The translations under genes were made by a program, and so were the position numbers. From the NCBI RefSeq assembly GCF_965641715.1, contig NZ_OZ282453.1: a stretch of DNA of 64,000 nucleotides. One strand, 5' to 3'. This stretch comes from Escherichia coli. GTDB taxonomy: Bacteria; Pseudomonadota; Gammaproteobacteria; Enterobacterales; Enterobacteriaceae. The first letter of the stretch is position 1, and the number at the start of each line of letters is the position of its first letter. The notes beneath the pieces were generated by a model that was given only the letters and a program-made list of their open reading frames with translations, made no database searches and had not been told where the DNA came from. This document shows positions 8,846 to 35,253 of the stretch, piece by piece.

Positions 8846-10126
8846 ATGAGTAAGTCTGAAAATCTTTACAGCGCAGCGCGCGAGCTGATCCCTGGCGGTG
8901 TGAACTCCCCTGTTCGCGCCTTTACTGGCGTGGGCGGCACTCCACTGTTTATCGAAAAAGCGGACGGCGCTTATCTGTACGATGTTGATGGCAAAGCCTA
9001 TATCGATTATGTCGGTTCCTGGGGGCCGATGGTGCTGGGCCATAACCATCCGGCGATCCGCAATGCCGTGATTGAAGCCGCCGAGCGTGGTTTAAGCTTT
9101 GGTGCACCAACCGAAATGGAAGTGAAAATGGCGCAACTGGTGACCGAACTGGTCCCGACCATGGATATGGTGCGCATGGTGAACTCCGGCACTGAAGCGA
9201 CAATGAGCGCCATCCGCCTGGCCCGTGGTTTTACCGGTCGCGACAAAATTATTAAATTTGAAGGTTGTTACCACGGTCACGCTGACTGCCTGCTGGTGAA
9301 AGCCGGTTCTGGCGCACTCACGTTAGGCCAGCCAAACTCGCCGGGCGTTCCGGCAGATTTCGCCAAACATACCTTAACCTGTACTTATAACGATCTGGCT
9401 TCTGTACGCGCCGCGTTTGAGCAATACCCGCAAGAGATTGCCTGTATTATCGTCGAGCCGGTGGCAGGCAATATGAACTGTGTTCCACCGCTGCCAGACT
9501 TCCTGCCAGGTCTGCGCGCGCTGTGCGACGAATTTGGCGCGTTGCTGATCATCGATGAAGTGATGACCGGTTTCCGCGTAGCGCTAGCTGGCGCACAGGA
9601 TTATTACGGTGTGGAACCGGATCTCACTTGCCTGGGCAAAATCATCGGCGGTGGAATGCCGGTAGGCGCATTCGGTGGTCGTCGTGATGTAATGGATGCG
9701 CTGGCCCCGACGGGTCCGGTCTATCAGGCGGGTACGCTTTCCGGTAACCCGATTGCGATGGCAGCCGGTTTCGCCTGTCTGAATGAAGTCGCGCAGCCGG
9801 GCGTTCACGAAACGCTGGATGAGCTGACAACACGTCTGGCAGAAGGTCTGCTGGAAGCGGCAGAAGAAGCCGGAATTCCGCTGGTGGTAAACCACGTTGG
9901 CGGCATGTTCGGTATTTTCTTTACCGACGCCGAGTCCGTGACGTGCTATCAGGATGTGATGGCCTGTGACGTCGAGCGTTTTAAGCGTTTCTTCCATATG
10001 ATGCTGGATGAAGGTGTTTACCTGGCACCGTCAGCGTTTGAAGCGGGCTTTATGTCTGTGGCGCACAGCATGGAAGATATCAATAACACCATCGATGCTG
10101 CACGTCGGGTGTTTGCGAAGTTGTGA
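8846..10126 (+). CDS. hemL: Glutamate-1-semialdehyde 2,1-aminomutase
   Basis: 426 aa; [26 protein letters not shown]. Confidence 0.95.
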
Positions 10127-10133
10127 TGATTTT

Positions 10134-10154
10134 GCCTCGCCCACCGGGCGAGGC
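10134..10154. terminator. Bidirectional hairpin between convergent hemL and fhuB (gcctcgcc / ggcgaggc), followed by attttatt
   Basis: inverted repeat plus T-run read directly. Confidence 0.6.
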
Positions 10155-10160
10155 ATTTTA

Positions 10161-12143
10161 TTAACGGCTCTGCTTTCTCAACAAATAGATAAAATATGGC
10201 GCGCCGATAAAGGTCGACAGCAGCCCCGCCGGGATCTGGAACGGAAACAGCACCATCCGCCCACACCAGTCAGCGAACACCAGCAGTAAACCACCCACCA
10301 GCGCCGAAATCACGATGTGCGGCATCGTCCGTCGAAAGCCCATCATCCGCGCGATATGCGGTGCCATTAAACCAACAAAACTCAACGGTCCAATGGTCAT
10401 CGTCGCGGTCGCCGTCAGGCAAGCCGCTAACAGCAGCAGCGCAATTCGCGTCGGCGTTAACGCCACCCCCACGGCCCGCGCGGTATCACCACCCAGCGGT
10501 AAAATGGTCAGCCAGCGGCGGCACAGCGGGGTAATCGCCAGCAAAATCACCATCACAATTCCGGTGCGCCAGACCTGCGCATCGGTGGCGTTGTAGGTCG
10601 AACCAGAGATCCAGGTCAGCACTTGCGCCATTCGCGGGTCACCACTCGCCTGCAACATCATTAAAAGCATGGTGAATGCGGTACTTAACGCCATCCCCGC
10701 CAGTAACATGCGGTGTGGGGAAAATCCACCGCGCCCGGCGGCGATCATAATAATCAACAGCGTCACCGCCGCCCCGATACTGCCCGCGGGTAACAGCCAG
10801 CCAAAAGCATTACCCGGTACCAGAAACAGCATCAGTACCACGCCAAACGCTGCGCCGGAGCTAATCCCCAGCACTTCCGGGCTTGCCATCGGGTTGCCGG
10901 TCAGTCGCTGAATAATACAGCCCGCCACCGCCAGCATGACGCCCGCAAATAGCGCCGCCATAATTCGCGGCCAGCGCCAGGGCATTAAATCATCGAGCAA
11001 CGCCCCGCTCGCCCACGTCCAGCCGTGCGCATCACGACCAAACGACAGCGCCACCACCACAGCCATCAACAGCAGCACGCCGCCCGCGAGGGCAAACGCC
11101 AGCACATGTTGGCGTTCAGCCGCGACACGATCGTTGACCTTCATATCCGGCGCGCTAATGCTGCGTAAACGCGGCAGCAACCACAGTAGCAGCGGCGCAC
11201 CGATCAACGCAGTGACCGAACCGGTGGACACTTCCATCCACACGCGAGTCAGCCAGAGGATGATTTGATCGGAAAGCCAGAGGATCAGCGCACCAATCAG
11301 CGACGCCAGCATCAACCGTGGCAGCAGACGCCGCGCCCCCAGCATTTTTGCCAGCAGCGGCGCGAACAACCCGATAAAGCCGATAATCCCCACAGCGTTC
11401 ACCAGCAGCGCACTGATGACAATCGCCAGCGACAGCGCCGCCAGACGCGCGAGCGACAAGGCCAGCCCGAGATTGCGCGCCACGCCATCATCAAGCCCCA
11501 TCAGGGTTAACGGACGAAGTAGCAGCAACGTCAGCATCACACCGCCCAGCAACTGCGGCCATAAACGCTCAACACCGCCCCAGTCGGTTTGCGTCAGCGT
11601 TCCGGTGCTCCACAGGAACATGCTTTGCAGTTGGTCATGGTGGAAGATAACCAGTAACTGATTGATTGCCCCACAATAAAGGCTCACTACCAGCCCCGCG
11701 AGGATCAGAGTTACCGGCGACAGCCGTTTCCCCCACGCGACGCCAAAGACAATTAAGCCAACAACGCAAGCCCCTGCCAGCGCAGCAAACTGGCTCGCCA
11801 TAGCACCTGGGATCGCCCAGAGCGTAGTGACGGTAATCCCCAGTTGCGCGCCTGTTGCAACGCCCAACGTCGTCGGTTCCGCCAGCGGGTTACGCAGCAC
11901 TTGCTGAAACAGCACGCCCACCAGCCCCAGGCCTGCGCCCACCAGCAGCGAAATCGCCAGACGCGGCAGCAAGCTGTAGTGAAAAATCATCTGCTCGATG
12001 ACGTCAATATCCGGCGACCAGGCAGCCTGCGCCCACTGGCTACGCGGCAGCGCCTGCGAGAAGTTCATCCAGGTCAGCGCCGTAGCGGCAATCACCAGCA
12101 ACGCCAGCAATAATGCCGGGAAAAGCGCAATACGTTTACTCAC
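10161..12143 (-). CDS. fhuB: Ferric hydroxamate ABC transporter permease FhuB
   Basis: 660 aa, internally duplicated permease; overlaps the fhuD stop. Confidence 0.95.
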   Translation of the reverse strand: MSKRIALFPALLLALLVIAATALTWMNFSQALPRSQWAQAAWSPDIDVIEQMIFHYSLLPRLAISLLVGAGLGLVGVLFQQVLRNPLAEPTTLGVATGAQLGITVTTLWAIPGAMASQFAALAGACVVGLIVFGVAWGKRLSPVTLILAGLVVSLYCGAINQLLVIFHHDQLQSMFLWSTGTLTQTDWGGVERLWPQLLGGVMLTLLLLRPLTLMGLDDGVARNLGLALSLARLAALSLAIVISALLVNAVGIIGFIGLFAPLLAKMLGARRLLPRLMLASLIGALILWLSDQIILWLTRVWMEVSTGSVTALIGAPLLLWLLPRLRSISAPDMKVNDRVAAERQHVLAFALAGGVLLLMAVVVALSFGRDAHGWTWASGALLDDLMPWRWPRIMAALFAGVMLAVAGCIIQRLTGNPMASPEVLGISSGAAFGVVLMLFLVPGNAFGWLLPAGSIGAAVTLLIIMIAAGRGGFSPHRMLLAGMALSTAFTMLLMMLQASGDPRMAQVLTWISGSTYNATDAQVWRTGIVMVILLAITPLCRRWLTILPLGGDTARAVGVALTPTRIALLLLAACLTATATMTIGPLSFVGLMAPHIARMMGFRRTMPHIVISALVGGLLLVFADWCGRMVLFPFQIPAGLLSTFIGAPYFIYLLRKQSR

Positions 12144-13030
12144 GCTTTACCTCCAATGGCGTTATCCAGAACGCGCACAAAGTGCATTGCCGAGAGCGTT
12201 GCACCATAAAACCAGACTGCGGGTACGCGCTGAAAGCGTCCGGCGCGGACAAACGGCATGGCCTGCCACAGCGGCGTTGCCATTAGCGCATCCATGTCTT
12301 TGCTGTTGTCGTGATCAAAACAGAGCACATCAACGTCTTTATACGCTGCCAGACGATCGATGCTGACGGCGGTACTGCCCCAGAAGTTGGTTTCCCCTTG
12401 CCAGGCATTTGGGATGCCGTACTCATCAAGAATTTCCTGGAACAAGCTGTTTGGACCGAAGACCAGCATATGGCGCGGATCGATAAGCGTCGTCAGCAAT
12501 AACGGACGCGCACCACGCTTCACAAAGCGGGGTTTCATGCTGCGGATAAAGTCTTCATATTGCGCTAAATGCGTTTCTGCTGCGCTTTGCAGGTTAAGTA
12601 AATCCGCCATTTCCGTCAGCGATTTACGCGCCATCGCCAGCGGCTGTTTGCCGTCGCTGAAGTTAAATCCACGCCCCGGCGCAATACGAGCCAGCATTTC
12701 TGGTGAAGGGCCATATCCTGCCGACCAGACCATAAACGACGGTTTCATTTCGGTCAGCAGTTCGAGGTTAGGTTCTGTACGCAAACCAACGTCAATCACT
12801 GAGTCCGGCAATGGTGGTTCGCTGACCCACAGGCGATAGTTGATGGTATCCGCCACGCCGTAAGGCACGATGCCGAGCGCCAGCAGTAATTCCACCGGCA
12901 ACCACTCCAGCGCCACAATACGATTGGGATCAATAGCCGCCGCGTGGGCGGTATTCATCTGCCATAACAACGGAGAAAGCGCCATCGCCGTTAACAGTCG
13001 ACGGCGCGAAATAAGAGGTAAGCCGCTCAT
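12140..13030 (-). CDS. fhuD: Ferric hydroxamate periplasmic binding protein FhuD
   Basis: ORF 12140..13033; MSGLPLISRRRLLTAMALSPLLWQMNTAHA signal peptide. Confidence 0.9.
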   Translation of the reverse strand: MSGLPLISRRRLLTAMALSPLLWQMNTAHAAAIDPNRIVALEWLPVELLLALGIVPYGVADTINYRLWVSEPPLPDSVIDVGLRTEPNLELLTEMKPSFMVWSAGYGPSPEMLARIAPGRGFNFSDGKQPLAMARKSLTEMADLLNLQSAAETHLAQYEDFIRSMKPRFVKRGARPLLLTTLIDPRHMLVFGPNSLFQEILDEYGIPNAWQGETNFWGSTAVSIDRLAAYKDVDVLCFDHDNSKDMDALMATPLWQAMPFVRAGRFQRVPAVWFYGATLSAMHFVRVLDNAIGGKA

Positions 13031-13827
13031 CAATAAACAAAACTCACAGGTGCAGCACCTGCCGGATGCGGCAAAATACCCATCGGGATGCCATAAATCA
13101 TTTCGAGGGTTTCGCCGCGCATAATTTCCGCAGGCGTTCCCTGAGCAATCATTTCACCGCCGCGCAGGGCGACCAGATAATCACAGTAGCGTGCCGCCAT
13201 ATTGATATCGTGCAGCACGGCAATGACCGTCAGACCACGTTCCTGACTTAAACGATGCACCAGCGCCAGCACATCAACCTGGTGGGCGATATCCAGCGCC
13301 GAGGTTGGCTCGTCGAGCAACAGACAACGGCTATCCTGCGCCACCAGCATGGCGATCCACGCCCGCTGACGTTCGCCGCCAGAGAGGCTATCGACCAGCC
13401 GATGCGCCAGCGGTTTTAAGCCAACCAGCGAGATAGCTTCCTCAACTTTTTCGCGATCTGCCGCACCAAAGCGCCCTAGTGCGCCATGCCACGGGTAACG
13501 ACCAATCGCCACCAGTTCACGCACGGTCATCCCTTCTGCCGGAGGAAGCTGCTGCGGTAAATAAGCCACTTTGCGGGCAAACGCTTTGCTGCTCCAGCTT
13601 TCCAGCGGCTGGGCATCAAGAAGAATCTCCCCTTCCGACGGCGGCTGATGACGGCCAAGCATTTTGAGCAGAGTGGATTTACCAGAACCGTTGTGACCAA
13701 TCAGACCGGTCACTTTCCCGGCAGGAAAGGTTAACGACAGCGGATGCAAAAGCGTGCGCCCGGGCACACGAAAGGAGATATTACGCAGTGCAAAAGTGGT
13801 ATCGGAATGATTCGTGTATTCCTGCAT
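13030..13827 (-). CDS. fhuC: Ferric hydroxamate ABC transporter ATPase FhuC
   Basis: ORF 13030..13869; 265-aa product from MQEYTNHSDTTFALRNISF; Walker A GHNGSGKST. Confidence 0.9.
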   Translation of the reverse strand: MQEYTNHSDTTFALRNISFRVPGRTLLHPLSLTFPAGKVTGLIGHNGSGKSTLLKMLGRHQPPSEGEILLDAQPLESWSSKAFARKVAYLPQQLPPAEGMTVRELVAIGRYPWHGALGRFGAADREKVEEAISLVGLKPLAHRLVDSLSGGERQRAWIAMLVAQDSRCLLLDEPTSALDIAHQVDVLALVHRLSQERGLTVIAVLHDINMAARYCDYLVALRGGEMIAQGTPAEIMRGETLEMIYGIPMGILPHPAGAAPVSFVY

Positions 13828-13877: not shown

Positions 13878-15387
13878 TTAGAAACGGAAGGTTGCGGTTG
13901 CAACGACCTGACGTTCTGCGCCCCAGAAGCAGCCATAAGTGTTAAAGCAGCTGGCGACGTATTCACGATCGAACAGGTTGTTGACATGCAGCGCCACGTT
14001 GGAGCCCGCCATGCCGACTCGCGCCAGATCATAACGCACTAACGCATCCACGACCGTATAACTTCCCACTTTAAAGGAGTTAGCCGGATCACCATAGCTG
14101 GAGCCAGTATAACGACCACCGGTGCCCAGCGTCAGACCTGAAAGCGGACCGTCAAAGAAGGTATAGTCAGCCCACAGCGAAGCCATGTGTTTTGGCACCT
14201 GTGCCGGCGTATTGCCTTTATAGGTAGTATCGGTGGTGTATTCCGCATCGGTGTAAGTATAAGAACCGACTACGTTAACACTCGCCGACAGCGCCGCTTT
14301 CGCTTCGATTTCTACGCCACGTGCGCGGATCTCGCCACCTTCAACCGAGAAGAAGGAACCCTCAGGGTCCGCCATCAGGTTGTTGGTTTTAGTGAGATTA
14401 TACACGGCACCAGTAACTACAATCGGACGATCTTCCGGTACATATTTCACGCCGACTTCATACTGCTTACCTTTAGACGGTGCGAAAATATTACCATCCT
14501 TCCCAACTTGCGAAGAAGGTTCAAACGATTCGCTATAGCTGAAGTAAGGTGTTACGCCATTATCAAACAGGTAGTTAACACCACCACGCCAGGTAAACTG
14601 TTTGTCATCGCGTTTATCGGTCGTCGCGGCAACGCGGTTAAGAGATTCTTGATCTGCCCAGTCGTAACGACCGCCCAGGGTGACCAGCACTTTATCCCAC
14701 TGCGCCTGATCCTGAACATAAACGCCCGTTTGTTTCTGCTTATTCAGAATGCGGTAAGGGCCGGAGTTTGCCGGATCTTTGGCATTGAAGTCGAAATCGG
14801 TATTCACCGGATTGTACAGATCGAGCAGCGGTACGGAGTCGTCGTAACCAAACCAAGCGTTGATGTCATTACGCATACGCATAAAGTCGACACCGGTCAG
14901 CAGGGTGTGGTCGATATCGCCAGTGGCAAACTTGCTCTGCAACTGGGTATCAACGGAGAAGTTTTGCAGCTTCTCATCATCAACGACGTATTTACGTGCC
15001 AGATAATGGCCTTTATCCGCTGGCGCTAATGCCGCACACTGTTTGCTGTAAGCATTCGCCGGATCGGAGCAGACGCCGTAACCATAAACGCTGTTTTGCG
15101 AGGTTTTGTTTTCAGCAAAGCGCAGGTTCTGACGCACAGTAAAGGTGTCGTTAAATTCGTGATCGAAGCTGTAGCCCACCATCTTCTCATTACGAGAATA
15201 GGTGTTGTTCTTCGCCCCTTCGTTAAAGTCTGTCGGCAGACGCTTACCGTTCGGCAGCGGCTCAACGGTTCCCTCTTTCGGCAACCAGCCGTAATAACCC
15301 GTTTCCGATGCCGCTAACCGCTGTGGCTACTACAACTGCGATTTTACGCAGTGAGTGTTTTGGCTGAGCAGTTTTGGAACGCGCCAT
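13878..15387 (-). pseudogene. fhuA: fhuA (ferrichrome receptor; phage T1/T5/phi80 receptor) with internal 734-bp frameshifting deletion
   Basis: ATG at 15387 encodes MARSKTAQPKHSLRKIAVVVATAVSG, then joins directly (junction 15307/15308) to ...ETGYYGWLPKEGTVEPL in another frame; the C-terminal 468 codons (ORF 13878..15284) are intact to ATFRF-stop; expected gene is about 2.24 kb but only 1510 bp are present. Confidence 0.85.
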
Positions 15388-15427
15388 TGGTATATCTCTG
15401 ATGTAAAGTGAATGATAACGTAAACGA

Positions 15428-15456
15428 GAATGATTATTATAAAGATAAGATAATAT
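15428..15456 (-). promoter_or_regulatory. Fur box in fhuA promoter region
   Basis: reverse strand reads atattatcttatctttataataatcattc, GATAAT/ATTATC-type repeats just upstream of the fhuA start. Confidence 0.65.
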
Positions 15457-15565
15457 TCGAAACGCTGGCGGGTTCGCAAGCGGTACGCAATCTGAGCGTT
15501 CCTGAAGGGTTAATAAACAACCAGATGAAAAGAAAGGGTTAATACTTTGGGTGGGATGTTATTTT

Positions 15566-15590
15566 ACCGGATGGCAACTCGCCATCCGGT
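15566..15590. terminator. Hairpin 3' of mrcB (ccggatggc / gccatccgg)
   Basis: 9-bp inverted repeat 16 nt past the mrcB stop. Confidence 0.5.
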
Positions 15591-15606
15591 ATTTCACGCT
15601 TAGATG

Positions 15607-18141
15607 TTAATTACTACCAAACATATCCTTAATCCAACCGGCTACACCGTCGCTATCTTTCTGCTCTTGCTGAGCAGGTTGCTGTTGCGGCTGTTGCTGC
15701 GGCTGTGAAGACTGATCAAACGGGTTGCCTGACGGCTGCTGCTGCATCTCACTCTGCTGGCACAGCGATTGCGGATCGCTGGTCCAGACCGGCAAGACAC
15801 GCATGCCACCGCTGCAAACAAAGTTGCCGTCGTAGTCCACGCCCATATCTGCAATATCTTCTGGCGGAACAAGATTCAGCGGCGTTGGCGTCTGGTTAGC
15901 CAGATAACGCTGATAAATCGACATTGCCCCGCTGGCACCATACAGTTTGGTCGGCTGGTTGTTATCACGGCCTACCCAGGTGATGGTCACCGTGCTGCCG
16001 TCAATGCCCGCAAACCAGGTATCTACGTTATTGTTGGTAGTCCCTGTTTTCCCTGCCAGATGCAGGTTCGGGTATTTCGCCCCAAGCTGACGACCCGTAC
16101 CACGTTGTACCACCTGCTGCATGGTCCATAGTGTCAGATACGCCGCCTGCGCCGGAACAGCGCGTTCCGCCTGCGGGAAGCTCTGATACAGCACTTTGCC
16201 ATCTTCCGCGATTACCGAACGCAGCGCAGAAAGCGGTGCACGGTTACCGCCGCTGGCGATGGTCTGGAATGCCTGCGCCACTTCGATTGGCGTTAAGTTC
16301 AACGCCCCCAGCAGCATCGCCGGAACCGGATGCAGCTGATCTTTCGGCACGCCCAGTTTAATCCAGGTATCCGTAACCGCAGGCAGCCCCAGCGCCATCC
16401 CCAGATTTACCGTCGGCACGTTCATCGAACGGGTCAACGCATCCACCAGCATCACTCTGCCGCTTTCGCTATAACGACGGTCATCGTTCTGCGGTGACCA
16501 GACCTGGCCATTCGGCTGACGTAGCGCGATTGGCGCATCCGCAATCCACGTATTCAGACGATAGATTTTCGGCTGGCTTAAGGCCGTCAGATAAGTCGCT
16601 GGTTTTGCAAGGGAACCAATCGAACGACGCGCCTGCATCGCACGGTTGTAGCCCGCAAACTGCGGCTCAGAACCTCCGACCATCGCACGAACTTCACCAC
16701 TAAAGCGGTCGACGACCACAATCGCGGTTTCCAGATCGCTCAGCTTACGCTGTTTCTTAAGTGCCGGAATGCCTTCCACGGCGGCTTTTTCTGCCGCGTC
16801 CTGGGCCACCGAGTCAAAGGTAGTGAAGATCTTCACGCCGGAGAGATCTTTTACCTTATCGCCTAATTTAGCCTGAAGCTCCTGACGCACCAGTTGCATA
16901 AAGGCTGGCTGAGGAGAGATCACCCCACCGCGCGGCTGAACACCCAGCGGACGCGCACTCAACATGTCATAGAGTTCTTGATCAATAATCTGTTGCTGTT
17001 GCAGCAGACGCAGTACCAGATTACGTCGCTCCAGCGCCAGTTTCGGGTTACGCCACGGGTTGTAGATGGACGCTCCTTTCACCATACCGACTAACAGCGC
17101 CTGTTGATCGAGGCTCAATTCTTCTACCGGGCGACCAAAGTAATACAAGCTCGCCAGCGGGAAGCCGCGGATTTCGTTGTCGCCGCTCTGACCGAGATAC
17201 ACCTCGTTCATATACAGCTCAAGAATACGGTCTTTGCTGTAACGCGCGTCCATGATCAGCGCCATGTAAGCTTCGTTCGCTTTACGCCAGTAAGAGCGCT
17301 CGCTGGAGAGGAACAGGTTTTTCACCAGCTGTTGCGTCAGCGTACTCGCCCCCTGCACCGTGCGTCCGGCTGTCAGGTTTGCCAGCACCGCACGTCCGAT
17401 GGAGTAGAGACTGATTCCATCATGCTCGTAGAAATGGCGGTCTTCTGTCGCCAGCAAAGTATCCACCAGCAAATCCGGGAAACCACTGCGCGGCACAAAC
17501 AAACGCTGCTCACCGTTTGGTGAGGAGATCATGGTGATCAGACGCGGATCAAGACGGAAGAAACCGAACTGACGGTTGTTCTCCATATTGACGATCGTCG
17601 CCAAATGATCGCCATCAAAGGTCAGACGCGCGCGCACCTGTCCTTCTTTACTGTCCGGGAAATCAAACGGACGGCGAATCATCTCAATGCTGTTGGCCTG
17701 CACGGTAAATTCGCCAGGACGGGTCATTTTTGACACCTGACGATACTGGGTTGCCTCCAGCAGCTTCACCATTTCGTTCTTGCTGATGGTCATGTCTGGC
17801 TCAAGGTTGACCATTCGACCATAAACTGCCGCAGGCAGTTGCCAGACCTTGCCATCAATACGGCTACGAATTTTTTGATCGAGATAAACGCCGTAAATGG
17901 CGATCAGCACGGCAAAAACGATAGCCAGTTTTAACAGCAGCCATAGCCAGCCGCGTTTGCCACGAGGCTTACGCCCTTTGCCTTTGCCCTTACCTTTGCG
18001 CGGCATCGGTTCTTCATCCTCATAGTCATCATAATCGTCGTAATCATCGTCATCTTCGTAACGACGACGGCTTACCTTTTGTTTGACCGGACGCGTCGGT
18101 TTCCCTTTGCGTCCAATTGGCTCGCGGTCATTCCCGGCCAT
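15607..18141 (-). CDS. mrcB: Penicillin-binding protein 1B (bifunctional glycosyltransferase/transpeptidase)
   Basis: ORF 15607..18156; 844-aa product from [20 protein letters not shown]; acidic [15 protein letters not shown] tract, Q/P-rich C-terminus. Confidence 0.95.
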
Positions 18142-22779: not shown

Positions 22780-23685
22780 TTCAAAGAGATGACAGACACA
22801 CACTATATTGGCCGCTTCGCCCCCTCTCCTTCCGGCGAGCTTCATTTTGGTTCTCTGATTGCTGCGCTTGGCAGCTATTTGCAGGCTCGCGCCCGGCAAG
22901 GTCGCTGGCTGGTACGCATAGAAGATATCGACCCGCCTCGTGAAGTTCCCGGTGCCGCAGAAACTATCCTGCGCCAGCTGGAACATTACGGCCTGCACTG
23001 GGACGGCGATGTTCTCTGGCAATCGCAACGTCACCACGCCTATCGCGAAGCACTCGCCTGGTTACATGAGCAAGGACTAAGTTATTACTGCACCTGCACG
23101 CGTGCACGTATTCAAAGCATTGGCGGTATTTACGACGGCCATTGCCGGGAATTGCATCATGGACCAGGCAACGCCGCAGTGCGTATCCGCCAGCAGCATC
23201 CGGTCACCCAGTTTACTGACCTGCTGCGCGGCATTATTCACGCCGACGAAAAACTGGCACGGGAAGATTTTATTATTCATCGCCGTGATGGTTTGTTTGC
23301 CTATAACCTGGCGGTGGTGGTCGATGATCACTTCCAGGGCGTGAGCGAAATTGTCCGCGGGGCAGATTTGATCGAACCGACAGTGCGGCAAATCTCGCTG
23401 TACCAGCTTTTTGGCTGGAAAGTGCCAGATTACATTCATCTGCCGCTGGCGCTTAATCCACAAGGCGCTAAACTTTCCAAGCAGAATCATGCGCCTGCGT
23501 TGCCGAAAGGCGATCCACGCCCGGTACTAATCGCGGCACTTCAATTTCTGGGGCAGCAGGCAGAAGCACACTGGCAGGATTTCAGCGTCGAGCAAATCCT
23601 TCAGTCAGCCGTCAAAAACTGGCGGCTTACCGCAGTGCCTGAGTCGGCAATTGTAAATTCAACATTCTCAAATGCGTCATGCTGA
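22759..23685 (+). CDS. gluQ: Glutamyl-Q tRNA(Asp) synthetase
   Basis: 308 aa; class I aaRS HIGR-like motif ([19 protein letters not shown]) and KLSK motif. Confidence 0.9.
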
Positions 23686-25142: not shown

Positions 25143-25618
25143 CAGTGGCGTATATTGCCATAGGCAGCAATCTGGCCTCTCCGCTGGAGCAGGTCAATGC
25201 TGCCCTGAAAGCATTAGGCGATATCCCTGAAAGCCACATTCTTACCGTTTCTTCGTTTTACCGCACCCCACCGCTGGGGCCGCAAGATCAACCCGATTAC
25301 TTAAACGCAGCCGTGGCGCTGGAAACCTCTCTTGCACCTGAAGAGCTACTCAATCACACACAGCGTATTGAATTGCAGCAAGGTCGCGTCCGTAAAGCTG
25401 AACGCTGGGGACCGCGCACGCTGGATCTCGACATCATGCTGTTTGGTAATGAAGTGATAAATACTGAACGACTGACCGTACCGCACTACGATATGAAAAA
25501 TCGTGGATTTATGCTGTGGCCGCTGTTTGAAATCGCGCCAGAGTTGGTGTTTCCTGATGGGGAAACATTACGTGAAATACTCACTTCACTAGCAGTACCA
25601 CAACCTGCCATCTGGTAA
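25139..25618 (+). CDS. folK: 2-amino-4-hydroxy-6-hydroxymethyldihydropteridine pyrophosphokinase (HPPK)
   Basis: 159 aa; [26 protein letters not shown]; overlaps pcnB stop (ATGA); last ~17 residues differ from the K-12 sequence I recall. Confidence 0.9.
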
Positions 25619-25960
25619 TAGCTGTATTATTTTATTTTCTTGACGAGAGGAATACAAAATGATACGGCTATTTCATCCACCAAGAAAAAATTATTTTCTT
25701 ATCTTACTCCTCACATCCCCCCTTACACATTAAATATACTTAATTTACATTTTAGTTTTTTTTAATTCATTCATGAAATAGCATTTCATGCAAATAGATT
25801 AGGCATTTTTTGTTTAAACGACCTAAAATAACAACAATTCAATACGCCACATAAATATATTCACACCCGTGATAATTCACCCCTATTACATCCTCCAAAA
25901 ACTTTGAGTAATATCCGCTCGCAATATTAATTTCATATAATTTTTGTAAGGATGCATGTA

Positions 25961-26557
25961 ATGAAAAAAGCACTTCTCGCAGCCGCTCTGGTTATGGCTT
26001 CTGGTTCCGCCCTGGCTGTAGATGGTGGTCATATCGACTTTAACGGTATGGTACAGTCCGGTACCTGTAAAGTGGGTGTGGTAGATACTGGTATGCACAG
26101 CGTTACCACTGATGGCGTGGTTACCCTGGATACTGCGAATGTTACTGATACTTTTGCTGAAGTTAGCGCAACTGCTGTCGGTTTACTGCCGAAAGAGTTC
26201 ATGATTTCTGTTGAGTGTGATCCAGGTGCTCCGAAGAATGCTGAGTTAACTATGGGTTCTGCAAGCTACGCGAACACCAGCGGTACCCTGAATAACAATA
26301 TGAACATCACTGTTAACGGTATTGCACCGGCTCAGAACGTAAACATTGCAGTTCATAACATGAAAAACAAAGCTGGCGCTGCTGAAATTAAGCAGGTCCA
26401 TATGAACAACTCTTCTGAAGTTCAGGAACTGACATTAGACGCAGAAGGTAAAGGCCAGTACGTATTTAACGCATCTTACGTTAAAGCACCGAACAGCCCG
26501 GCTGTAACTGCTGGTCATGTAACCACTAACGCGCTGTACACCATTGCTTATAAGTAA
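25961..26557 (+). CDS. yadN: Fimbrial major subunit (YadN-position allele, divergent from K-12)
   Basis: signal peptide MKKALLAAALVMASGSALA, conserved Cys pair, C-terminal YTIAYK beta-strand motif; RBS aagga 8 nt upstream of ATG 25961. Confidence 0.8.
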   Translation: MKKALLAAALVMASGSALAVDGGHIDFNGMVQSGTCKVGVVDTGMHSVTTDGVVTLDTANVTDTFAEVSATAVGLLPKEFMISVECDPGAPKNAELTMGSASYANTSGTLNNNMNITVNGIAPAQNVNIAVHNMKNKAGAAEIKQVHMNNSSEVQELTLDAEGKGQYVFNASYVKAPNSPAVTAGHVTTNALYTIAYK

Positions 26558-26643
26558 TTGATGGTGTGTTGAGCATAAGGTTTGCCAGCAGGCAAACCTT
26601 ATTTTCGCGAATTTAATCTTTCTACAGACAGCAAGGAGTGCTT

Positions 26644-27369
26644 ATGTTTCCCTTGGTTAAAAAAACGGTTAGTGCATTATTTGTGAGTACTCTGTTAGCC
26701 AGTGCACCAGCATTCGCTGACATTATTATTTCCGGAACACGTATCATTTATAACGCTGATAAAAAAGATGTTAACGTTCGTCTGGAAAATAAAGGGAATC
26801 GCCCCTTACTGATTCAGAACTGGTTGGATACTGGCGACGACAATGCCGATCCCAGCCAGATCAAAGTGCCGTTTACCGCGACCCCACCAGTTTCACGCGT
26901 GGAGCCAAAACGCGGTCAAACCGTAAAAGTGATGTATACCGGTGCAACAGCCCTGCCGAAAGACCGTGAAAGCGTCTACTGGTTTAACGTGCTGGAAGTG
27001 CCGCCTAAGCCGAAAGATGCTGAGGCTGACAAAAACTTGTTACAGCTGGCTTTCCGCACACGCATCAAACTCTTTTATCGCCCGAGTGGGTTACAGGGAG
27101 AACCGGCTGAAGCACCGGCGAAAATCACCTGGAAATTAAACAACGCTCAGTTACAGGCAAATAACCCAACGCCATATTACGTGTCCTTTAATGAGGTCAA
27201 GCTGGAAAGCGGCGGCAAAACCTACAACGTCAATTCCAGCATGGTCGCGCCGTTCAGCCAGGCAAGCTTTGGCGTAACCGGTCTGCCAGGAAGCGTGTCA
27301 TCCGGAAAAGTGGTTTTTAAAGCGATCAACGACTTTGGCGGCAACATTGATGGTTCCGCAACATTCTAA
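26644..27369 (+). CDS. yadV: Periplasmic fimbrial chaperone (PapD-like; YadV/EcpD position)
   Basis: IISGTRIIYNADKKDVNVRLENKGNRPLLIQNWLD chaperone motif; RBS aaggag before ATG 26644. Confidence 0.85.
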   Translation: MFPLVKKTVSALFVSTLLASAPAFADIIISGTRIIYNADKKDVNVRLENKGNRPLLIQNWLDTGDDNADPSQIKVPFTATPPVSRVEPKRGQTVKVMYTGATALPKDRESVYWFNVLEVPPKPKDAEADKNLLQLAFRTRIKLFYRPSGLQGEPAEAPAKITWKLNNAQLQANNPTPYYVSFNEVKLESGGKTYNVNSSMVAPFSQASFGVTGLPGSVSSGKVVFKAINDFGGNIDGSATF

Positions 27370-27410
27370 AAAATAAACGGATTCTTTTTAACATCGCCAG
27401 GAATGCAACC

Positions 27411-30011
27411 TTGTACCAGTTTACTCATCAAAAAAGCCGTATCCCGAAAAAAACGCTACTTGCGGCCTGTTGCGCCCTTTTTTACAGCGGCAACAGTTCT
27501 GCGGCGGACACCGTGGAATATGACAGTTCCTTCTTAATGGGAACTGGCGCATCAACGATTGATGTTAAACGTTATGCTCAAGGCAACCCGACACCGCCGG
27601 GTCTCTATAATGTCCGCGTGTTTGTAAACGGCCAGCCCACGTCCAGCTTAGAAATTCCGTTTGTGGATATTGGCGAAAACAGCGCAGCGGCCTGTATTAC
27701 CCACAAAAACCTGGCACAACTTCACATTAAGCAACCTGAACAGCCTGTCACTTTACTCGCCAGAGAAGGTGAGGAAGAGGATTGTCTGGATTTGGCAAAG
27801 TCATACGAAAAGGCGGATGTGCGCTTTGACGGTAGTGACCAGTTTCTCGATCTGACGATCCCTCAGGCCTATGTTTTGAAAAGCTATGGCGGCTACGTTG
27901 ACCCTTCTTTATGGGAATCGGGAATTAACGCTGCCACACTGGCATATACCCTGAACGCGTATCACACAAGTTCAGATAACGATAATAGTGACAGCGTCTA
28001 TGGCGCATTTAACTCGGGTATCAATTTAGGAGCCTGGCACTTCCGTGCGCGCGGTAACTATAACTGGACAACAGATAACGGCAGCGATTTCGATTTCCAG
28101 GATCGTTACTTACAGCGTGACATTCCGGCAATCCGTTCACAGATAATTATGGGTGACGCCTACACCACCGGTGAAACGTTTGACTCTGTCAACGTCCGTG
28201 GTGTTCGCCTGTACAGCGATAGCCGTATGCTACCTTCGGCGCTGGCCAGTTACGCCCCGACCATCCGCGGTGTAGCAAACTCCAACGCCAAAGTTACGGT
28301 GACGCAGAACGGTTATAAAATCTATGAAACTACCGTTCCACCCGGTGAATTTGTTATAGACGACATTAGCCCCTCCGGCTTTGGTAGCGAACTGGTCGTA
28401 ACCATTGAAGAAGCGGATGGTTCCAAACGCACCTTTACGCAACCCTTCTCGTCGGTTGTGCAAATGCAACGTCCTGGTGTAGGTCGTTGGGATTTCAGTG
28501 CCGGTAAAGTCATTGATGATAGCCTGCGTTCCGAACCCAATATGGGGCAAGCCTCTTATTACTATGGTCTGAATAACCTCTTCACGGGTTATACCGGCAT
28601 TCAGTTCACCGATAACAACTATCTTGCCGGGCTGTTAGGTGTGGGTATCAACACCAGCATCGGCGCCTTTGCGGTAGACGTTACCCATTCTCGCGCTGAG
28701 ATTCCGGATGATAAAACTTACCAGGGGCAAAGTTATCGCGTGACCTGGAACAAATTATTCCAGGATACCGGGACATCATTTAACCTCGCGGCGTACCGCT
28801 ATTCCACCCAGGATTATCTGGGCCTGCATGATGCGTTAGTCCTCATTGACGACGCCAAACATTTGTCTGCCGATGAAGACAAAAACACCATGCAGACGTA
28901 CTCACGTATGAAAAACCAGTTTACCGTCAGCATCAACCAGCCGCTGAAAACGACTTACGAAGATTACGGTTCACTGTTTATTTCCGGTAGCTGGACGGAT
29001 TACTGGGCGGCGAACAATAGCCGCACTGAATATAATGTTGGTTACAGTAAAAGCGTTTCGTGGGGCAGTTTCAGCGTCAACCTGCAACGTAGCTGGAATG
29101 AAGACGGCGAGAAAGATGACGCGATGTACGTCAGCGTTAGCGTACCTATTGAGAATATTTTAGGTGGCAAACGCAAATCTTCTGGTTTCCGCAATTTAAA
29201 TACTCAGCTCAATACCGATTTCGATGGTTCACATCAGTTGAATGTTAACAGTTCCGGTAACACTGAAAACAATCTGGTGAACTACAGTGTCAACGCAGGT
29301 TATAGCCTCGATAAAAACTCCGGCGATTTAGCCTCTGTTGGTGGTTATCTCAACTATGAATCAGGGTTAGGCGGTATTTCCGCTTCGGCCTCGGCCACTT
29401 CTGATAATAGCCAGCAGTACTCCATCTCCACCGATGGCGGCTTTGTATTACACAGTGGTGGTTTAACGTTCACTAACAACAGTTTCAGCAGTAACGACAC
29501 ACTGGTGTTAATCAACGCCCCAGGTGCTAAAGGCGCACGAATCAATAACAGTAATAACGAAATCGATCGCTGGGGATATGCCGTGACATCTTCTGTCAGC
29601 CCCTACCGTGAAAACCGGGTAGGTCTGAACATTGAAACACTGGAAAACGATGTTGAACTGAAAAGTACCAGCGCCACCACCGTACCACGCAGCGGCTCCG
29701 TTGTTTTGACCCGTTTCGAAACTGACGAGGGGCGTTCTGCCGTGCTGAATATTACTGCCGCCAATGGCAAATCTATTCCGTTTGCTGCGGAGGTTTACCA
29801 GGGTGAGGTGATGATCGGCAGCATGGGCCAGGGTGGTCAGGCATTTGTGCGCGGTATTAACGACAGCGGGGAATTAACAGTGCGTTGGTATGAAAACAAC
29901 CAAACCATTGACTGTAAGTTGCACTACCAGTTCCCAGCCCAGCCACAAACGCTGGGAAGTACCAACACCTTATTACTTAACAATCTTACCTGTCAGGTAG
30001 CAAATCACTAA
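27411..30011 (+). CDS. htrE: Outer membrane fimbrial usher (HtrE position)
   Basis: 866 aa; usher motifs (YNVRVFVNGQ, RGVRLYSDSRMLP, TVPPGEFVIDDISPSGFGSELVVTIEEADGSKRTF); start codon uncertain (TTG at 27411). Confidence 0.85.
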   Translation: MYQFTHQKSRIPKKTLLAACCALFYSGNSSAADTVEYDSSFLMGTGASTIDVKRYAQGNPTPPGLYNVRVFVNGQPTSSLEIPFVDIGENSAAACITHKNLAQLHIKQPEQPVTLLAREGEEEDCLDLAKSYEKADVRFDGSDQFLDLTIPQAYVLKSYGGYVDPSLWESGINAATLAYTLNAYHTSSDNDNSDSVYGAFNSGINLGAWHFRARGNYNWTTDNGSDFDFQDRYLQRDIPAIRSQIIMGDAYTTGETFDSVNVRGVRLYSDSRMLPSALASYAPTIRGVANSNAKVTVTQNGYKIYETTVPPGEFVIDDISPSGFGSELVVTIEEADGSKRTFTQPFSSVVQMQRPGVGRWDFSAGKVIDDSLRSEPNMGQASYYYGLNNLFTGYTGIQFTDNNYLAGLLGVGINTSIGAFAVDVTHSRAEIPDDKTYQGQSYRVTWNKLFQDTGTSFNLAAYRYSTQDYLGLHDALVLIDDAKHLSADEDKNTMQTYSRMKNQFTVSINQPLKTTYEDYGSLFISGSWTDYWAANNSRTEYNVGYSKSVSWGSFSVNLQRSWNEDGEKDDAMYVSVSVPIENILGGKRKSSGFRNLNTQLNTDFDGSHQLNVNSSGNTENNLVNYSVNAGYSLDKNSGDLASVGGYLNYESGLGGISASASATSDNSQQYSISTDGGFVLHSGGLTFTNNSFSSNDTLVLINAPGAKGARINNSNNEIDRWGYAVTSSVSPYRENRVGLNIETLENDVELKSTSATTVPRSGSVVLTRFETDEGRSAVLNITAANGKSIPFAAEVYQGEVMIGSMGQGGQAFVRGINDSGELTVRWYENNQTIDCKLHYQFPAQPQTLGSTNTLLLNNLTCQVANH

Positions 30012-30012
30012 T

Positions 30013-30573
30013 ATGGAAAATTCTATGAAAAGGATACTACTAACATCCGCGTTAATAGGCCTGGGTTTACCGGCGGTTGGCTCTGCAACAGATCTTAATG
30101 TCGATTTTACGGCCACCGTATTAGCCACCACCTGTACGATAACTATCGTACAAGATGGTGGTCCAGTAGTGACGGGTAGCAACGGTGAATATAGCCTGAC
30201 AATTCCCGATGTTGGCCTGGATAAAGTTGTCACTGGAGATGTTGCAGCTCAAGCCAACTTTAAATTAGTGGCTTCCGATTGCAGCAATGGTTATTCAAAG
30301 ATTTTTACCACACTTACAGGAACAACGGTTTCCGGTAAGTTAATTGTTAATGAAACAACCTCTGGCGCTACGGGTGTGGGTATGGGGATTAAGCGTAGAG
30401 ATACCGCAGACTCGGCTTTCTTTACGCCAAATAATACTGACAAATTTGAATGGAGTACCGATGAGAAAGCTAACGGTGTGCCTCTGACCGTAGCACTGCG
30501 CGAAACAACGGCAGGAGCAGGACGCACTGGTGCGTTTCAGGCAAAAGCCACCTTTAACTTCACCTACGAATAA
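30013..30573 (+). CDS. yadM: Fimbrial minor subunit (YadM position)
   Basis: signal peptide then pilin fold, C-terminal FNFTYE; alternative start at 30025. Confidence 0.75.
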   Translation: MENSMKRILLTSALIGLGLPAVGSATDLNVDFTATVLATTCTITIVQDGGPVVTGSNGEYSLTIPDVGLDKVVTGDVAAQANFKLVASDCSNGYSKIFTTLTGTTVSGKLIVNETTSGATGVGMGIKRRDTADSAFFTPNNTDKFEWSTDEKANGVPLTVALRETTAGAGRTGAFQAKATFNFTYE

Positions 30574-30587
30574 CAGGGACAGCCACC

Positions 30588-31199
30588 ATGAAATTAAAAG
30601 TCATAGCTACACTGATTGCTACTGTTGCCGTGGGTGCCAGCGTTAGCAACAATCTCACTTATGCGAGTACGACATCCGCCTCTTTAACCGTAAACAGTAA
30701 CCTGACTATGGGTACCTGTAGTGCGAAGGTAGTGGATACCAGTGGTGCCGTGATCGACACCGTTGTCTTGGGCAATGTTTATATTTCTGAACTGGCAGCC
30801 AAAAGCAAGGTGCAACCATTTAAAATCCGCTTCAGCGATTGTGCCGGGCTTCCAGGAAAGAGTGCTCAACTCGTCTTAGCGCCCAAAAACAACGGTTGCG
30901 CAGGAGGCATGTCTGACACTGCCGCCTTTTCAAATAAACTCAACACCACCACCGATGGTGGTTCAAGCAGAGCAGCAGTCGAAGTATGGACGACTACAAG
31001 CCCCGAAGGAACTGGCAGTGAGCAATTCAATTGTTATCAGCGAAACGTCATCAATGTCGATCTTTCTAATGCCAGCACAACACAGCCTTATGATTTCGAT
31101 TTAAGCGCGCGAATGATTATCGCTGGCGGGTGGACAGTCAATGACGTATTACCGGGTAGATTCCTCTCTCCTACGACTTTCACAATCACTTATCAGTAA
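30588..31199 (+). CDS. yadL: Fimbrial minor subunit (YadL position)
   Basis: signal peptide MKLKVIATLIATVAVGASV; C-terminal FTITYQ. Confidence 0.75.
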   Translation: MKLKVIATLIATVAVGASVSNNLTYASTTSASLTVNSNLTMGTCSAKVVDTSGAVIDTVVLGNVYISELAAKSKVQPFKIRFSDCAGLPGKSAQLVLAPKNNGCAGGMSDTAAFSNKLNTTTDGGSSRAAVEVWTTTSPEGTGSEQFNCYQRNVINVDLSNASTTQPYDFDLSARMIIAGGWTVNDVLPGRFLSPTTFTITYQ

Positions 31200-31219
31200 T
31201 AGCGGATAAGGATATTAGA

Positions 31220-31810
31220 ATGCTATGCAGGCATCATAAATTTGTACGTTTTTTGGGGCTGGCAACAGCCCTCATTACGCCTTTTGCCTATGCTGGCCAG
31301 GATGTGGATCTCACGGCGCAGATTGTGGCCAGCACCTGTCAGGTGGAAGTCAGTAATAATGGCGTTGTCGATCTCGGCACAGTGACGCTGGACTATTTTG
31401 CTGACAATGTGACCCCAACGACGGATTACGCGGGTGGCAAAACGTTTAATGTTAATGTGGTCTCTTGCGATAACATTCAAACGACACAGTCGCAAATGAA
31501 ATTAGATTTTCAGCCGCAGGCGGGATCGCTTGCACAGGTGAATAATCAAATTTTTAGTAATGAATACGAACAGCAGGCTACCGGGGCGAAAAACGTCGGC
31601 ATTGTGATATTTTCGGCCCAACCGAATCAGCAGACATTTAACGTGCGAGGAACAGATGGTTCCTCAGCAGCAATTTATTCGGTCGCGCCTGGCAATGCTG
31701 TTCCCTCAACCTGGACCTTTTATTCCCGTATGCAGCGGGTGAATAATGCCCTTCCTCCTGAATCGGGAATGGTGAGAAGCCAGGTTATTGTTAACGTATC
31801 TTACGAATAA
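31220..31810 (+). CDS. yadK: Fimbrial minor subunit (YadK position)
   Basis: signal peptide, C-terminal VNVSYE; RBS aaggat 6 nt upstream. Confidence 0.75.
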   Translation: MLCRHHKFVRFLGLATALITPFAYAGQDVDLTAQIVASTCQVEVSNNGVVDLGTVTLDYFADNVTPTTDYAGGKTFNVNVVSCDNIQTTQSQMKLDFQPQAGSLAQVNNQIFSNEYEQQATGAKNVGIVIFSAQPNQQTFNVRGTDGSSAAIYSVAPGNAVPSTWTFYSRMQRVNNALPPESGMVRSQVIVNVSYE

Positions 31811-31821
31811 TAAGGATAATT

Positions 31822-32934
31822 ATGCAAAGGAAAGGCAATAGACTGTTGATTCAGTTATGCAGTGCGATACTGCTATTTTTTACCACATCCTGGTATGCAT
31901 TGGCGAATGAATGTTATATAGAGAGAAATGCTGAAGGGCCTTATGATATGGTGATAAACCCAAAGCCCTTCAGTATACAGTCAGCGATGGTCACAGTCCC
32001 GGAAGAAATAGGCTTCGCGTCCTGGGATTCTCATATTGATCTTCGGGGCGATAAGATTGGTTGTAAATCCTTAGGTAGTGACACAAGCTCAGTGCATTTT
32101 CTTAATACTGCTGATGCCAGCCTCTTATCAACCTATACTACCAACCATGGCGGTGCTTTATTGAAAACAACCGTTCCCGGTATTGTTTATTCAGTAGAAT
32201 TATTATGTACAAGTTGTGGAGCCGCGGACGAACTTGCTTTGCTTCTTCCTGCGCAAAGTGGTGCAGATAATCATACAGATAACGCCAGCTCAAAGTGGGC
32301 CTATGAATATAGTGACGATAGCTGGTATTTACGGTTTCGTTTTTACTGGACCCCGGAATTTAAACCTCAAAATGGGGTTTCAGAAGGAACTGCGATGCCA
32401 GGTAAAATAGCTTCCTGGTATATAGGCAATAATGACCAACCATGGATAAATTTTTTCGTTGATACAAGCTCCGTTCATTTTTACGTTGACGAACCGACCT
32501 GTGCAACAGTTGCCCTCGCACAAGATAAGGGCAACGTCAGTGGCAACCAGGTAACGCTTGGGAACAGCTATGTTTCGGAAGTGAAAAATGGGCTTACGCG
32601 GGAAATCCCTTTTTCTATCCGTGCTGAATACTGCTATGCCAGTAAAATTACGGTTAAGTTGAAAGCGGCAAATAAACCCAGCGATGCCACACTGGTGGGT
32701 AAAACGACTGGCTCTGCTTCAGGCGTGGCTGTAAAAGTAAATTCAACTTATGACAATAGCAAAGTATTGTTAAAAGCAGATGGTAGCAACACGGTTGACT
32801 ATAACTTCGCCGTCTGGTCAAACAACCTGCTGCTTTTACCTTTTACGGCGCAGCTGGTACCGGATGGCAGTGGTGCTGCTGTCGGTGTTGGAACCTTCTC
32901 TGGTAACGCGACCTTCTCCTTTACCTACGAATAA
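31822..32934 (+). CDS. yadC: Two-domain fimbrial tip adhesin (YadC position)
   Basis: 370 aa; N-terminal ~200-aa putative lectin domain plus C-terminal pilin domain ending ATFSFTYE; RBS aagga. Confidence 0.75.
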   Translation: MQRKGNRLLIQLCSAILLFFTTSWYALANECYIERNAEGPYDMVINPKPFSIQSAMVTVPEEIGFASWDSHIDLRGDKIGCKSLGSDTSSVHFLNTADASLLSTYTTNHGGALLKTTVPGIVYSVELLCTSCGAADELALLLPAQSGADNHTDNASSKWAYEYSDDSWYLRFRFYWTPEFKPQNGVSEGTAMPGKIASWYIGNNDQPWINFFVDTSSVHFYVDEPTCATVALAQDKGNVSGNQVTLGNSYVSEVKNGLTREIPFSIRAEYCYASKITVKLKAANKPSDATLVGKTTGSASGVAVKVNSTYDNSKVLLKADGSNTVDYNFAVWSNNLLLLPFTAQLVPDGSGAAVGVGTFSGNATFSFTYE

Positions 32935-34760: not shown

Positions 34761-34822
34761 TATTAATTTGCCCTACGTTATGGCGATGACGTCTGTAAGT
34801 GATTATTCATATCGCTGGCAAT

Positions 34823-35032
34823 TTAGTTAGAGTTAATTAGCTTATCAATCTCTGTAAGAGGTAAAGTTGTCACCTCTGCAACGTCTTCCCGAGACATCCC
34901 TTTACTTAGAAAACGCTGGGCGAATTCCTGTCTTACCTTCTGGAGTTCCTCTTGATATCCCTTCTGAAATCCCTTCTCTTCAAACCACTGCGCCAACGTC
35001 TGCCTGGTTTCTCTCCGTGTCTTTATTTCCAT
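34823..35032 (-). CDS. Orphan Rpn C-terminal-domain (RpnS-like) small protein, 69 aa; diverged duplicate of the rpnC tail
   Basis: ORF MEIKTRRETRQTLAQWFEEKGFQKGYQEELQKVRQEFAQRFLSKGMSREDVAEVTTLPLTEIDKLINSN aligns with the last ~50 residues of the adjacent rpnC product; own ATG with aggga SD 5 nt upstream; DNA is a direct repeat of 35101..35266. Confidence 0.6.
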   Translation of the reverse strand: MEIKTRRETRQTLAQWFEEKGFQKGYQEELQKVRQEFAQRFLSKGMSREDVAEVTTLPLTEIDKLINSN

Positions 35033-35100
35033 AGGTTCCCTTAATTATCTGGTCAGTTAACAATAACAATTATCTGGCTATAACTGATGATGCAGACAAC

Positions 35101-35253
35101 TTAGTTAATCAGCTTATCAATCTCGGCAAGGGGTAAATTTGCCATCTCTGCAACGTCTTCCCGAGACATTCCTTTATTCAGAAGACGCAGGACGAATTCT
35201 TGCCTTTCCTCCTGTCTTCCCCTCTCTTCAAACCACTGCGCCAGCGTCATCAT
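35101..35253 (-). CDS. Putative internal RpnS-type small ORF in the rpnC reading frame (MMTLAQWFEERGRQEERQEFVLRLLNKGMSREDVAEMANLPLAEIDKLIN)
   Basis: in-frame ATGATG at 35253/35250 preceded 4-5 nt upstream by GGGAGGGGAG (reverse complement of 35257..35266). Confidence 0.45.
   Translation of the reverse strand: MMTLAQWFEERGRQEERQEFVLRLLNKGMSREDVAEMANLPLAEIDKLIN

Follow-up and report, generated by a model that had tools for sequence, protein, structure and literature searches.

The outer membrane protein FhuA of Escherichia coli transports ferrichrome, albomycin and the rifamycin CGP 4832, and is also the receptor for colicin M, microcin J25 and the phages T1, T5 and phi80 (PMC10373560). Transposon disruption of fhuA was enriched more than 1,000-fold under T5 and CEV2 (PMC7553319), and knockouts of the gene are known to recur independently (10.1101/320069). 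In the fhuA2 allele, an IS2 element is inserted between K-12 positions 167919 and 167920, after approximately codon 145, with a 5-bp target duplication (PMC4444293 Table 3; PMC5105096). The natural fhuA pseudogenes considered here, which include frameshifts in S. Typhi and knockouts in several E. coli strains, are due to indels of 1-2 bp, a 16-bp insertion and nonsense codons. Engineered plug-less ("cork-less") FhuA barrels are used in transport and nanopore studies.

We analyzed the fhuA gene in a 64-kb stretch of E. coli DNA, hereafter the window. The fhuACDB operon is located on the minus strand between mrcB (15607-18141) and hemL, with fhuA itself between mrcB and fhuC; the gene runs from the ATG at 15387 to the end of the stop codon at 13878. 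The gene carries an internal deletion, and the allele resembles fhuA2::IS2 of the NEB K-12 and B strains in that fhuA is broken upstream of the barrel while the fhuCDB sequence is intact. The two alleles are also of the same phenotypic class (tonA, resistance to T1, T5 and phi80, which for the window allele is a prediction), but the window allele has no IS element and has instead lost nucleotides 81-814. Identity with fhuA2 was considered and ruled out, there being no IS in or near the window fhuA and the background being neither K-12 nor B. With the natural pseudogenes the window allele shares the loss of function, the otherwise conserved fhuACDB operon and the intact downstream genes, whereas its lesion is a blunt deletion of 734 bp that removes the plug-encoding region. 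The cork-less constructs likewise have no plug domain; however, they retain the reading frame and the signal peptide, which allows export of the barrel, whereas the window allele is out of frame with a truncated signal peptide, and no barrel is expected to be made or exported. The window fhuA represents a very well known kind of lesion in the form of a new allele, which is not the usual laboratory allele. The earlier note on this DNA had called it the classic tonA/fhuA lesion, which is correct for a null allele of the tonA phenotypic class but is not supported for the lesion as such, since the widely distributed allele of laboratory strains, fhuA2, is an IS2 insertion.

Structure of the deletion and its junction

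The breakpoints were determined by comparison with the wild-type fhuA of strain EC1515 and with an allele of the same lineage with identical flanks (L006:4023-6266). The window gene consists of wild-type nucleotides 1-80 (15387-15308) followed by wild-type nucleotides 815-2244 (15307-13878). The prefix identical to the wild type is 80 nt long and the identical suffix 1430 nt; together they make up 1510 nt, which is the entire gene in the window. The two matches overlap by 0 bases, 734 nt (nucleotides 81-814) are gone, and there is no other substitution in the gene. When the alignment to EC1515 was extended base by base, the left match ended at window position 15308 and the right match began at 15307. 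Every top megablast match among 5,426 complete E. coli genomes was split into two pieces, covering 2,635 bp in the record as compared to 1,901 bp in the query, a gap of 734 bp; full-length collinearity with wild-type fhuA was not seen. Since 734 equals 3x244+2, the deletion shifts the reading frame. Thus, the 734-bp out-of-frame internal deletion of codons 27-272 with a junction at 15307/15308, as read earlier from the letters, proved exact on alignment.

The junction sequence (15307..15308, minus strand) is GGCAT/CGGAAAC and is blunt, without microhomology, filler or scar. The corresponding wild-type contexts are GGCAT/GTCTG on the left and CGAGC/CGGAA on the right, which have been fused to GGCAT/CGGAA. 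No microhomology or repeats were found at the breakpoints; the nearest common 8-mer, CCGAAAGA, is located 26-28 nt inside and out of register. Inspection of the breakpoint sequences by eye revealed no restriction-site logic. A search for the 734-bp segment elsewhere in the 64-kb window gave chance matches of 12-18-mers only. A blunt junction of this type suggests an illegitimate end-joining or breakage-rejoining event rather than replication slippage, since zero microhomology argues against a slipped-strand deletion. Microhomology-independent end-joining is a rare junction type in E. coli.

The 5' part of the gene (15308..15387, minus strand) contains codons 1-26 and two bases of codon 27, and encodes the 26 N-terminal residues of the 33-residue signal peptide. 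The 3' remnant (13878..15307, minus strand) contains nucleotides 815-2244, corresponding to residues 273-747 and most of the beta-barrel, in a different reading frame from the start codon. It retains 475 sense codons (273-747) in addition to two bases of codon 272. The first 26 and the last 468 codons had been described as intact; the former number is correct, whereas the latter is the length in amino acids of the mechanical ORF counted from the TTG at 15284, the first one in frame. The native ATG now opens an aberrant ORF of 41 codons (15262..15387, minus strand) with 26 native residues, MARSKTAQPKHSLRKIAVVVATAVSG, followed by 15 out-of-frame residues, IGNGLLRLVAERGNR, and a TGA stop at 15264-15262.

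The surroundings of the deletion are unchanged, in agreement with the earlier claim that the upstream region and fhuCDB are untouched. The intergenic region between mrcB and fhuA (15388..15606, minus strand), with the fhuA promoter and regulatory sequences, showed no differences to the fhuA+ relative L006. The 213 bp next to the fhuA ATG are identical to those of EC1515, and the four differences between the intergenic region and that of K-12 are all located far upstream. A Fur-box-like sequence, CTTTATAATAATCATTCTC (15426..15444, minus strand), which ends 38 nt upstream of the ATG, is assigned solely by its match to the consensus GATAATGATAATCATTATC at 14 of 19 positions; repression of fhuA by Fur is established (cited in PMC7553319). 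A consensus scan for promoters and terminators yielded weak matches only. Downstream on the minus strand, fhuC (13030..13827, 265 aa) is intact with no internal stops and 0 amino acid differences to strain ES5, and both fhuD (12140..13030, 296 aa) and fhuB (10161..12143, 660 aa) are intact and full length without stops, the exact FhuB protein being present in many public genomes. Within 25 kb, the 734-bp gap is the sole indel relative to strain ES5, and 20 other annotated genes (fhuC, fhuD, fhuB and 17 more) are full length with no internal stops. A decaying genome similar to that of Shigella was also considered and was ruled out, as neither IS elements nor other pseudogenes were observed in the 25 kb examined.

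Occurrence and origin of the allele

A total of 8 contigs on record encode exactly the 468-aa product of the remnant, and exact lookup of this ORF was the sole route by which the carrier run ERR14867472 was found. One of these contigs is from the Logan assembly of this run; it contains the junction 40-mer and matches the window at 100% identity in one alignment of 14,439 nt. The presence of the junction in an independent assembly of a raw run argues that the deletion is not an assembly artefact. In addition, the breakpoints have no repeats able to cause a collapse, and the flanks on both sides are perfectly collinear with those of relatives. The possibility that the 734 bp have been relocated, so that the gene is rearranged rather than deleted, may draw on the fact that the inspection covered 64 kb of the genome, but the segment is absent from all of this window, and the independent assembler arrived at the identical junction from raw reads. 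We consider artefact or rearrangement highly improbable.

Genomes of the same lineage were identified by exact-protein lookup of FhuB and HrpB of the window. Assembly GCA_965256245.1 (L006) showed 0 differences in 17,249 nt of flanks and has a full-length fhuA gene for 747 aa. Two differences in 17,696 nt were found in GCA_003721895.1 (L018), whose full-length fhuA, also for 747 aa, is identical to that of L006. GCA_013689095.1 (L029), which was compared further along the window, showed one difference in 21,113 nt. The absence of differences in 17 kb fits L006 as a member of the same clone, without being proof of direct parentage. As for individual sites, position 23139 of the window (inside gluQRS) is C, where both L018 and L029 have T, and position 11809 (inside fhuB) is G, where L018 has A. 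The 370-aa tip adhesin of the yad operon, which serves as a lineage marker, is found exactly in at least 24 public contigs. The junction was searched for more broadly. An 80-mer across it had 0 contiguous matches in the 5,426 complete E. coli genomes, the exact 40-mer had 0 matches both in 100,044 species-representative genomes and in metagenome contigs, and exact-product lookup found no record of the 41-aa aberrant peptide. Since near-identical members of the clone carry a full-length fhuA and the junction is absent from these collections, the sequence comparisons indicate that the deletion arose recently and is restricted to one sub-lineage.

Over the first 25 kb of the window, the highest identity among the 5,426 complete E. 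coli genomes was 99.2%, to assorted human and animal isolates. O157:H7 and O55:H7 were 99.0% identical over the same 25 kb. K-12 MG1655 was 97.6-99.1% identical, with the alignment being lost in the yad fimbrial operon, which bears out the earlier suggestion of a non-K-12 background. A match at about 100% would be expected for any strain derived from K-12, B, C or W. On the sequence comparisons, the host is a member of a wild clone that has been repeatedly sampled in public assemblies, and whose members differ by 0-2 SNPs per approximately 17-21 kb. Both relatives examined at the fhuA locus (L006 and L018) are fhuA+. The earlier proposal of a laboratory or industrial host was not upheld, given identities of at most 99.2% to any complete genome, the wide sampling of the clone and the fhuA+ state of its relatives. 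No mention of ERR14867472, GCA_965256245 or GCA_003721895 was found in the literature searched.

Lookup of the 468-aa downstream ORF, which they share with the window carrier, also brought up by chance six independently disrupted fhuA genes in other strains of E. coli, which are approximately 1-1.7% diverged from the window. These are W254 to TAG (L008:4023-6266), W254 to TGA (L023:9164-11407), deletion of G628 (L024:9165-11407), E192 to TAA (L025:9164-11407), insertion of CC at nt 706 (L026:3042-5287) and insertion of 16 bp at nt 707 (L027:2930-5189). Since six unrelated knockouts surfaced incidentally, loss of this receptor is commonplace, and so is its diversification. In the 5,426 complete E. 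coli genomes, fhuA falls into discrete bands of identity to the window allele, at 95% or more, approximately 87% and approximately 78%, which matches the mosaic fhuA clusters E1-E4 and the variation at loop apices described previously (10.1101/320069). Truncated copies of fhuA were seen in a few genomes, for example E2863 and BLSE177-2012.

Taken together, the window very probably contains a recent, spontaneous 734-bp internal deletion by which fhuA has become a null pseudogene in an E. coli clone of wild rather than laboratory origin. It might instead be a classic tonA/fhuA allele of a non-K-12 laboratory or industrial production strain, introduced or selected deliberately for resistance to T1 and T5. 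T1-resistant strains with a disrupted fhuA are in wide use (PMC13035648), and the lesion does yield a genotype of the tonA null type. One could also speculate that the fhuA+ relative with 0 SNPs, an ENA-submitted assembly, and the carrier, whose run has an ERR prefix, are a parent and mutant pair from one study. However, the common laboratory allele is the IS2 insertion fhuA2 (PMC4444293, PMC5105096), which is seen also in NEBExpress_Iq, and none of the complete genomes, which include laboratory derivatives of K-12, B, C and W, exceeds 99.2% identity or has the junction. The host is most closely related to isolates from humans and animals, and members of the clone are present in many draft assemblies. 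Moreover, a designed deletion is recognized by an FRT or lox scar, a cassette, or boundaries that are in frame or enclose the whole ORF, whereas here nucleotide 80 is followed directly by nucleotide 815, foreign bases are absent, and part of the ORF has been removed out of frame. An origin in a laboratory or production strain is therefore improbable on these grounds, while a phage-resistant derivative selected in the laboratory from a wild isolate is possible.

For a deletion that arose in the wild clone, selection by a phage or bacteriocin that targets FhuA is the most likely way in which the allele was recovered, we infer, and it is the most economical one because the lesion is a single, recent and clean receptor knockout in an otherwise intact region. 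The full scenario, a natural escape mutant from phage or bacteriocin that exists beside fhuA+ members of the clone and was perhaps formed by microhomology-independent end-joining, is put forward tentatively, as a possibility on the doubtful side. If it were true, and if the carrier and a fhuA+ relative came from the same host or outbreak, they would constitute a clean natural pair for receptor loss, including the cost of polarity on fhuCDB. Neutral pseudogenisation offers a different account, in which a random deletion reached fixation through drift or a bottleneck (during isolation or passage, for example) in a niche with dispensable ferrichrome uptake, and with no selection by phage or bacteriocin. 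It agrees with the annotation of fhuA as a pseudogene in many strains and with the view that some lineages tolerate its loss (10.1101/320069), and the six unrelated knockouts met by chance would fit a large mutational target under weak purifying selection. Yet the deletion is the sole lesion in 25 kb of otherwise intact genes and is very recent, fhuA is strongly selected under phage pressure (PMC7553319), and both the diversifying variation in the surface loops of FhuA (10.1101/320069) and the divergent allele bands speak against neutrality, which we regard as rather unlikely.

Predicted consequences for FhuA and fhuCDB

The parental FhuA of 747 aa aligns to PDB entries 1BY3 and 8A8C from residue 34, which is the mature N-terminus, and Pfam assigns residues 76-180 to the Plug domain (PF07715) and residues 254-716 to the barrel (PF00593). 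Of the required signal peptide, residues 1-26 of 33 are left, the last seven having been deleted along with the cleavage site after residue 33. The Plug domain, also required, is located wholly within the deleted codons 27-272. The TonB box, which we take from the established structure to be at precursor residues ~40-44, is within the deleted segment as well. As for the full barrel in frame, residues 254-272, the first ~19 of the domain, are deleted and the rest is in another frame than the ATG. These placements bear out the predicted loss of the end of the signal peptide, the TonB box, the plug and the first part of the barrel.

As in other null alleles of the tonA class, the reading frame is disrupted at the chromosomal fhuACDB locus, with a premature stop at 15262-15264. 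Judged from its sequence, the window fhuA is a null allele for which no reversion would be possible. Translation from the native ATG yields 26 residues of the signal peptide and 15 nonsense residues before the stop, and the 475 remaining codons are out of frame and without a signal peptide. Neither a full-length nor an exportable FhuA can thus be translated, suggesting that FhuA is absent from the outer membrane. It is conceivable that internal initiation in the 3' remnant gives rise to a truncated barrel protein that is functional, given the 468-aa ORF from TTG 15284 and the ATG at 15182, which is in frame and has GAGAAG ahead of it. But no Shine-Dalgarno sequence is located ahead of TTG 15284, the product would have no signal peptide and could not get to the outer membrane, and its barrel would begin at residue 273 or later, as compared to 254-716 for the Pfam domain. 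The chance of a functional product from the remnant is close to nil.

The carrier is predicted to have lost the uptake of ferrichrome, albomycin and the rifamycin CGP 4832, and to be insensitive to colicin M, microcin J25 and FhuA-dependent phages (T1, T5, phi80 and relatives). The predicted lack of infection by such phages would be relevant if the isolate were a target of phage therapy or a propagation host, and resistance would be expected to albomycin-type "Trojan horse" antibiotics in addition to colicin M and microcin J25. For tracing the sub-lineage, the exact junction offers a clonal marker that is both convenient and irreversible. Beyond strain characterisation the finding has little meaning, although it corrects the laboratory-strain interpretation of this window.

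The deletion may also affect the downstream genes, since approximately 1.43 kb of mRNA ahead of fhuC is now predicted to be untranslated and would probably lower the expression of fhuCDB through transcriptional polarity. Most fhuA frameshifts have been stated to be significantly polar on fhuCDB (preprint 10.1101/320069). A scan of the untranslated stretch for sequences resembling Rho-utilisation sites showed that it is not markedly C-rich, with 24.8% C versus 26.4% G overall and a weak excess of C over G. Reinitiation at the internal starts (TTG 15284 and ATG 15182) could dampen such an effect. We conclude that polarity of the deletion on fhuCDB is likely. If the deletion is polar, all uptake of hydroxamate siderophores may be impaired, including that of aerobactin, coprogen and rhodotorulate.

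Other features of the window

A 191-aa ORF is located between gcd and cueO (44260-44835, minus strand) and is annotated as a "hypothetical protein" in strain 33F4. Its N-terminus resembles a signal peptide by eye, and the ORF probably accounts for the ~650 bp absent from most of the top matches (97% coverage). REP-type palindromes, GCCGGATGCGGCG and CGCCTTATCCGGC, are located just downstream of gcd (44145-44175); such REP sequences are probably the reason why the 25-50 kb query matches approximately 34 places per genome. In the interval between panC and panD (~34800-36000, placed from the L003 annotation 9824-10974, strain 33F4), that annotation has rpnC and a short, partial pseudogene of a "hypothetical protein"; rpnC is annotated in 33F4 as a recombination-promoting nuclease of the Transposase_31 family. 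The yad-type chaperone-usher fimbrial operon (~25900-32934, plus strand) is a non-K-12 variant, ahead of which the megablast alignment to K-12 ends at 25578, and its tip adhesin of 370 aa is encoded at 31822-32934 (plus strand).
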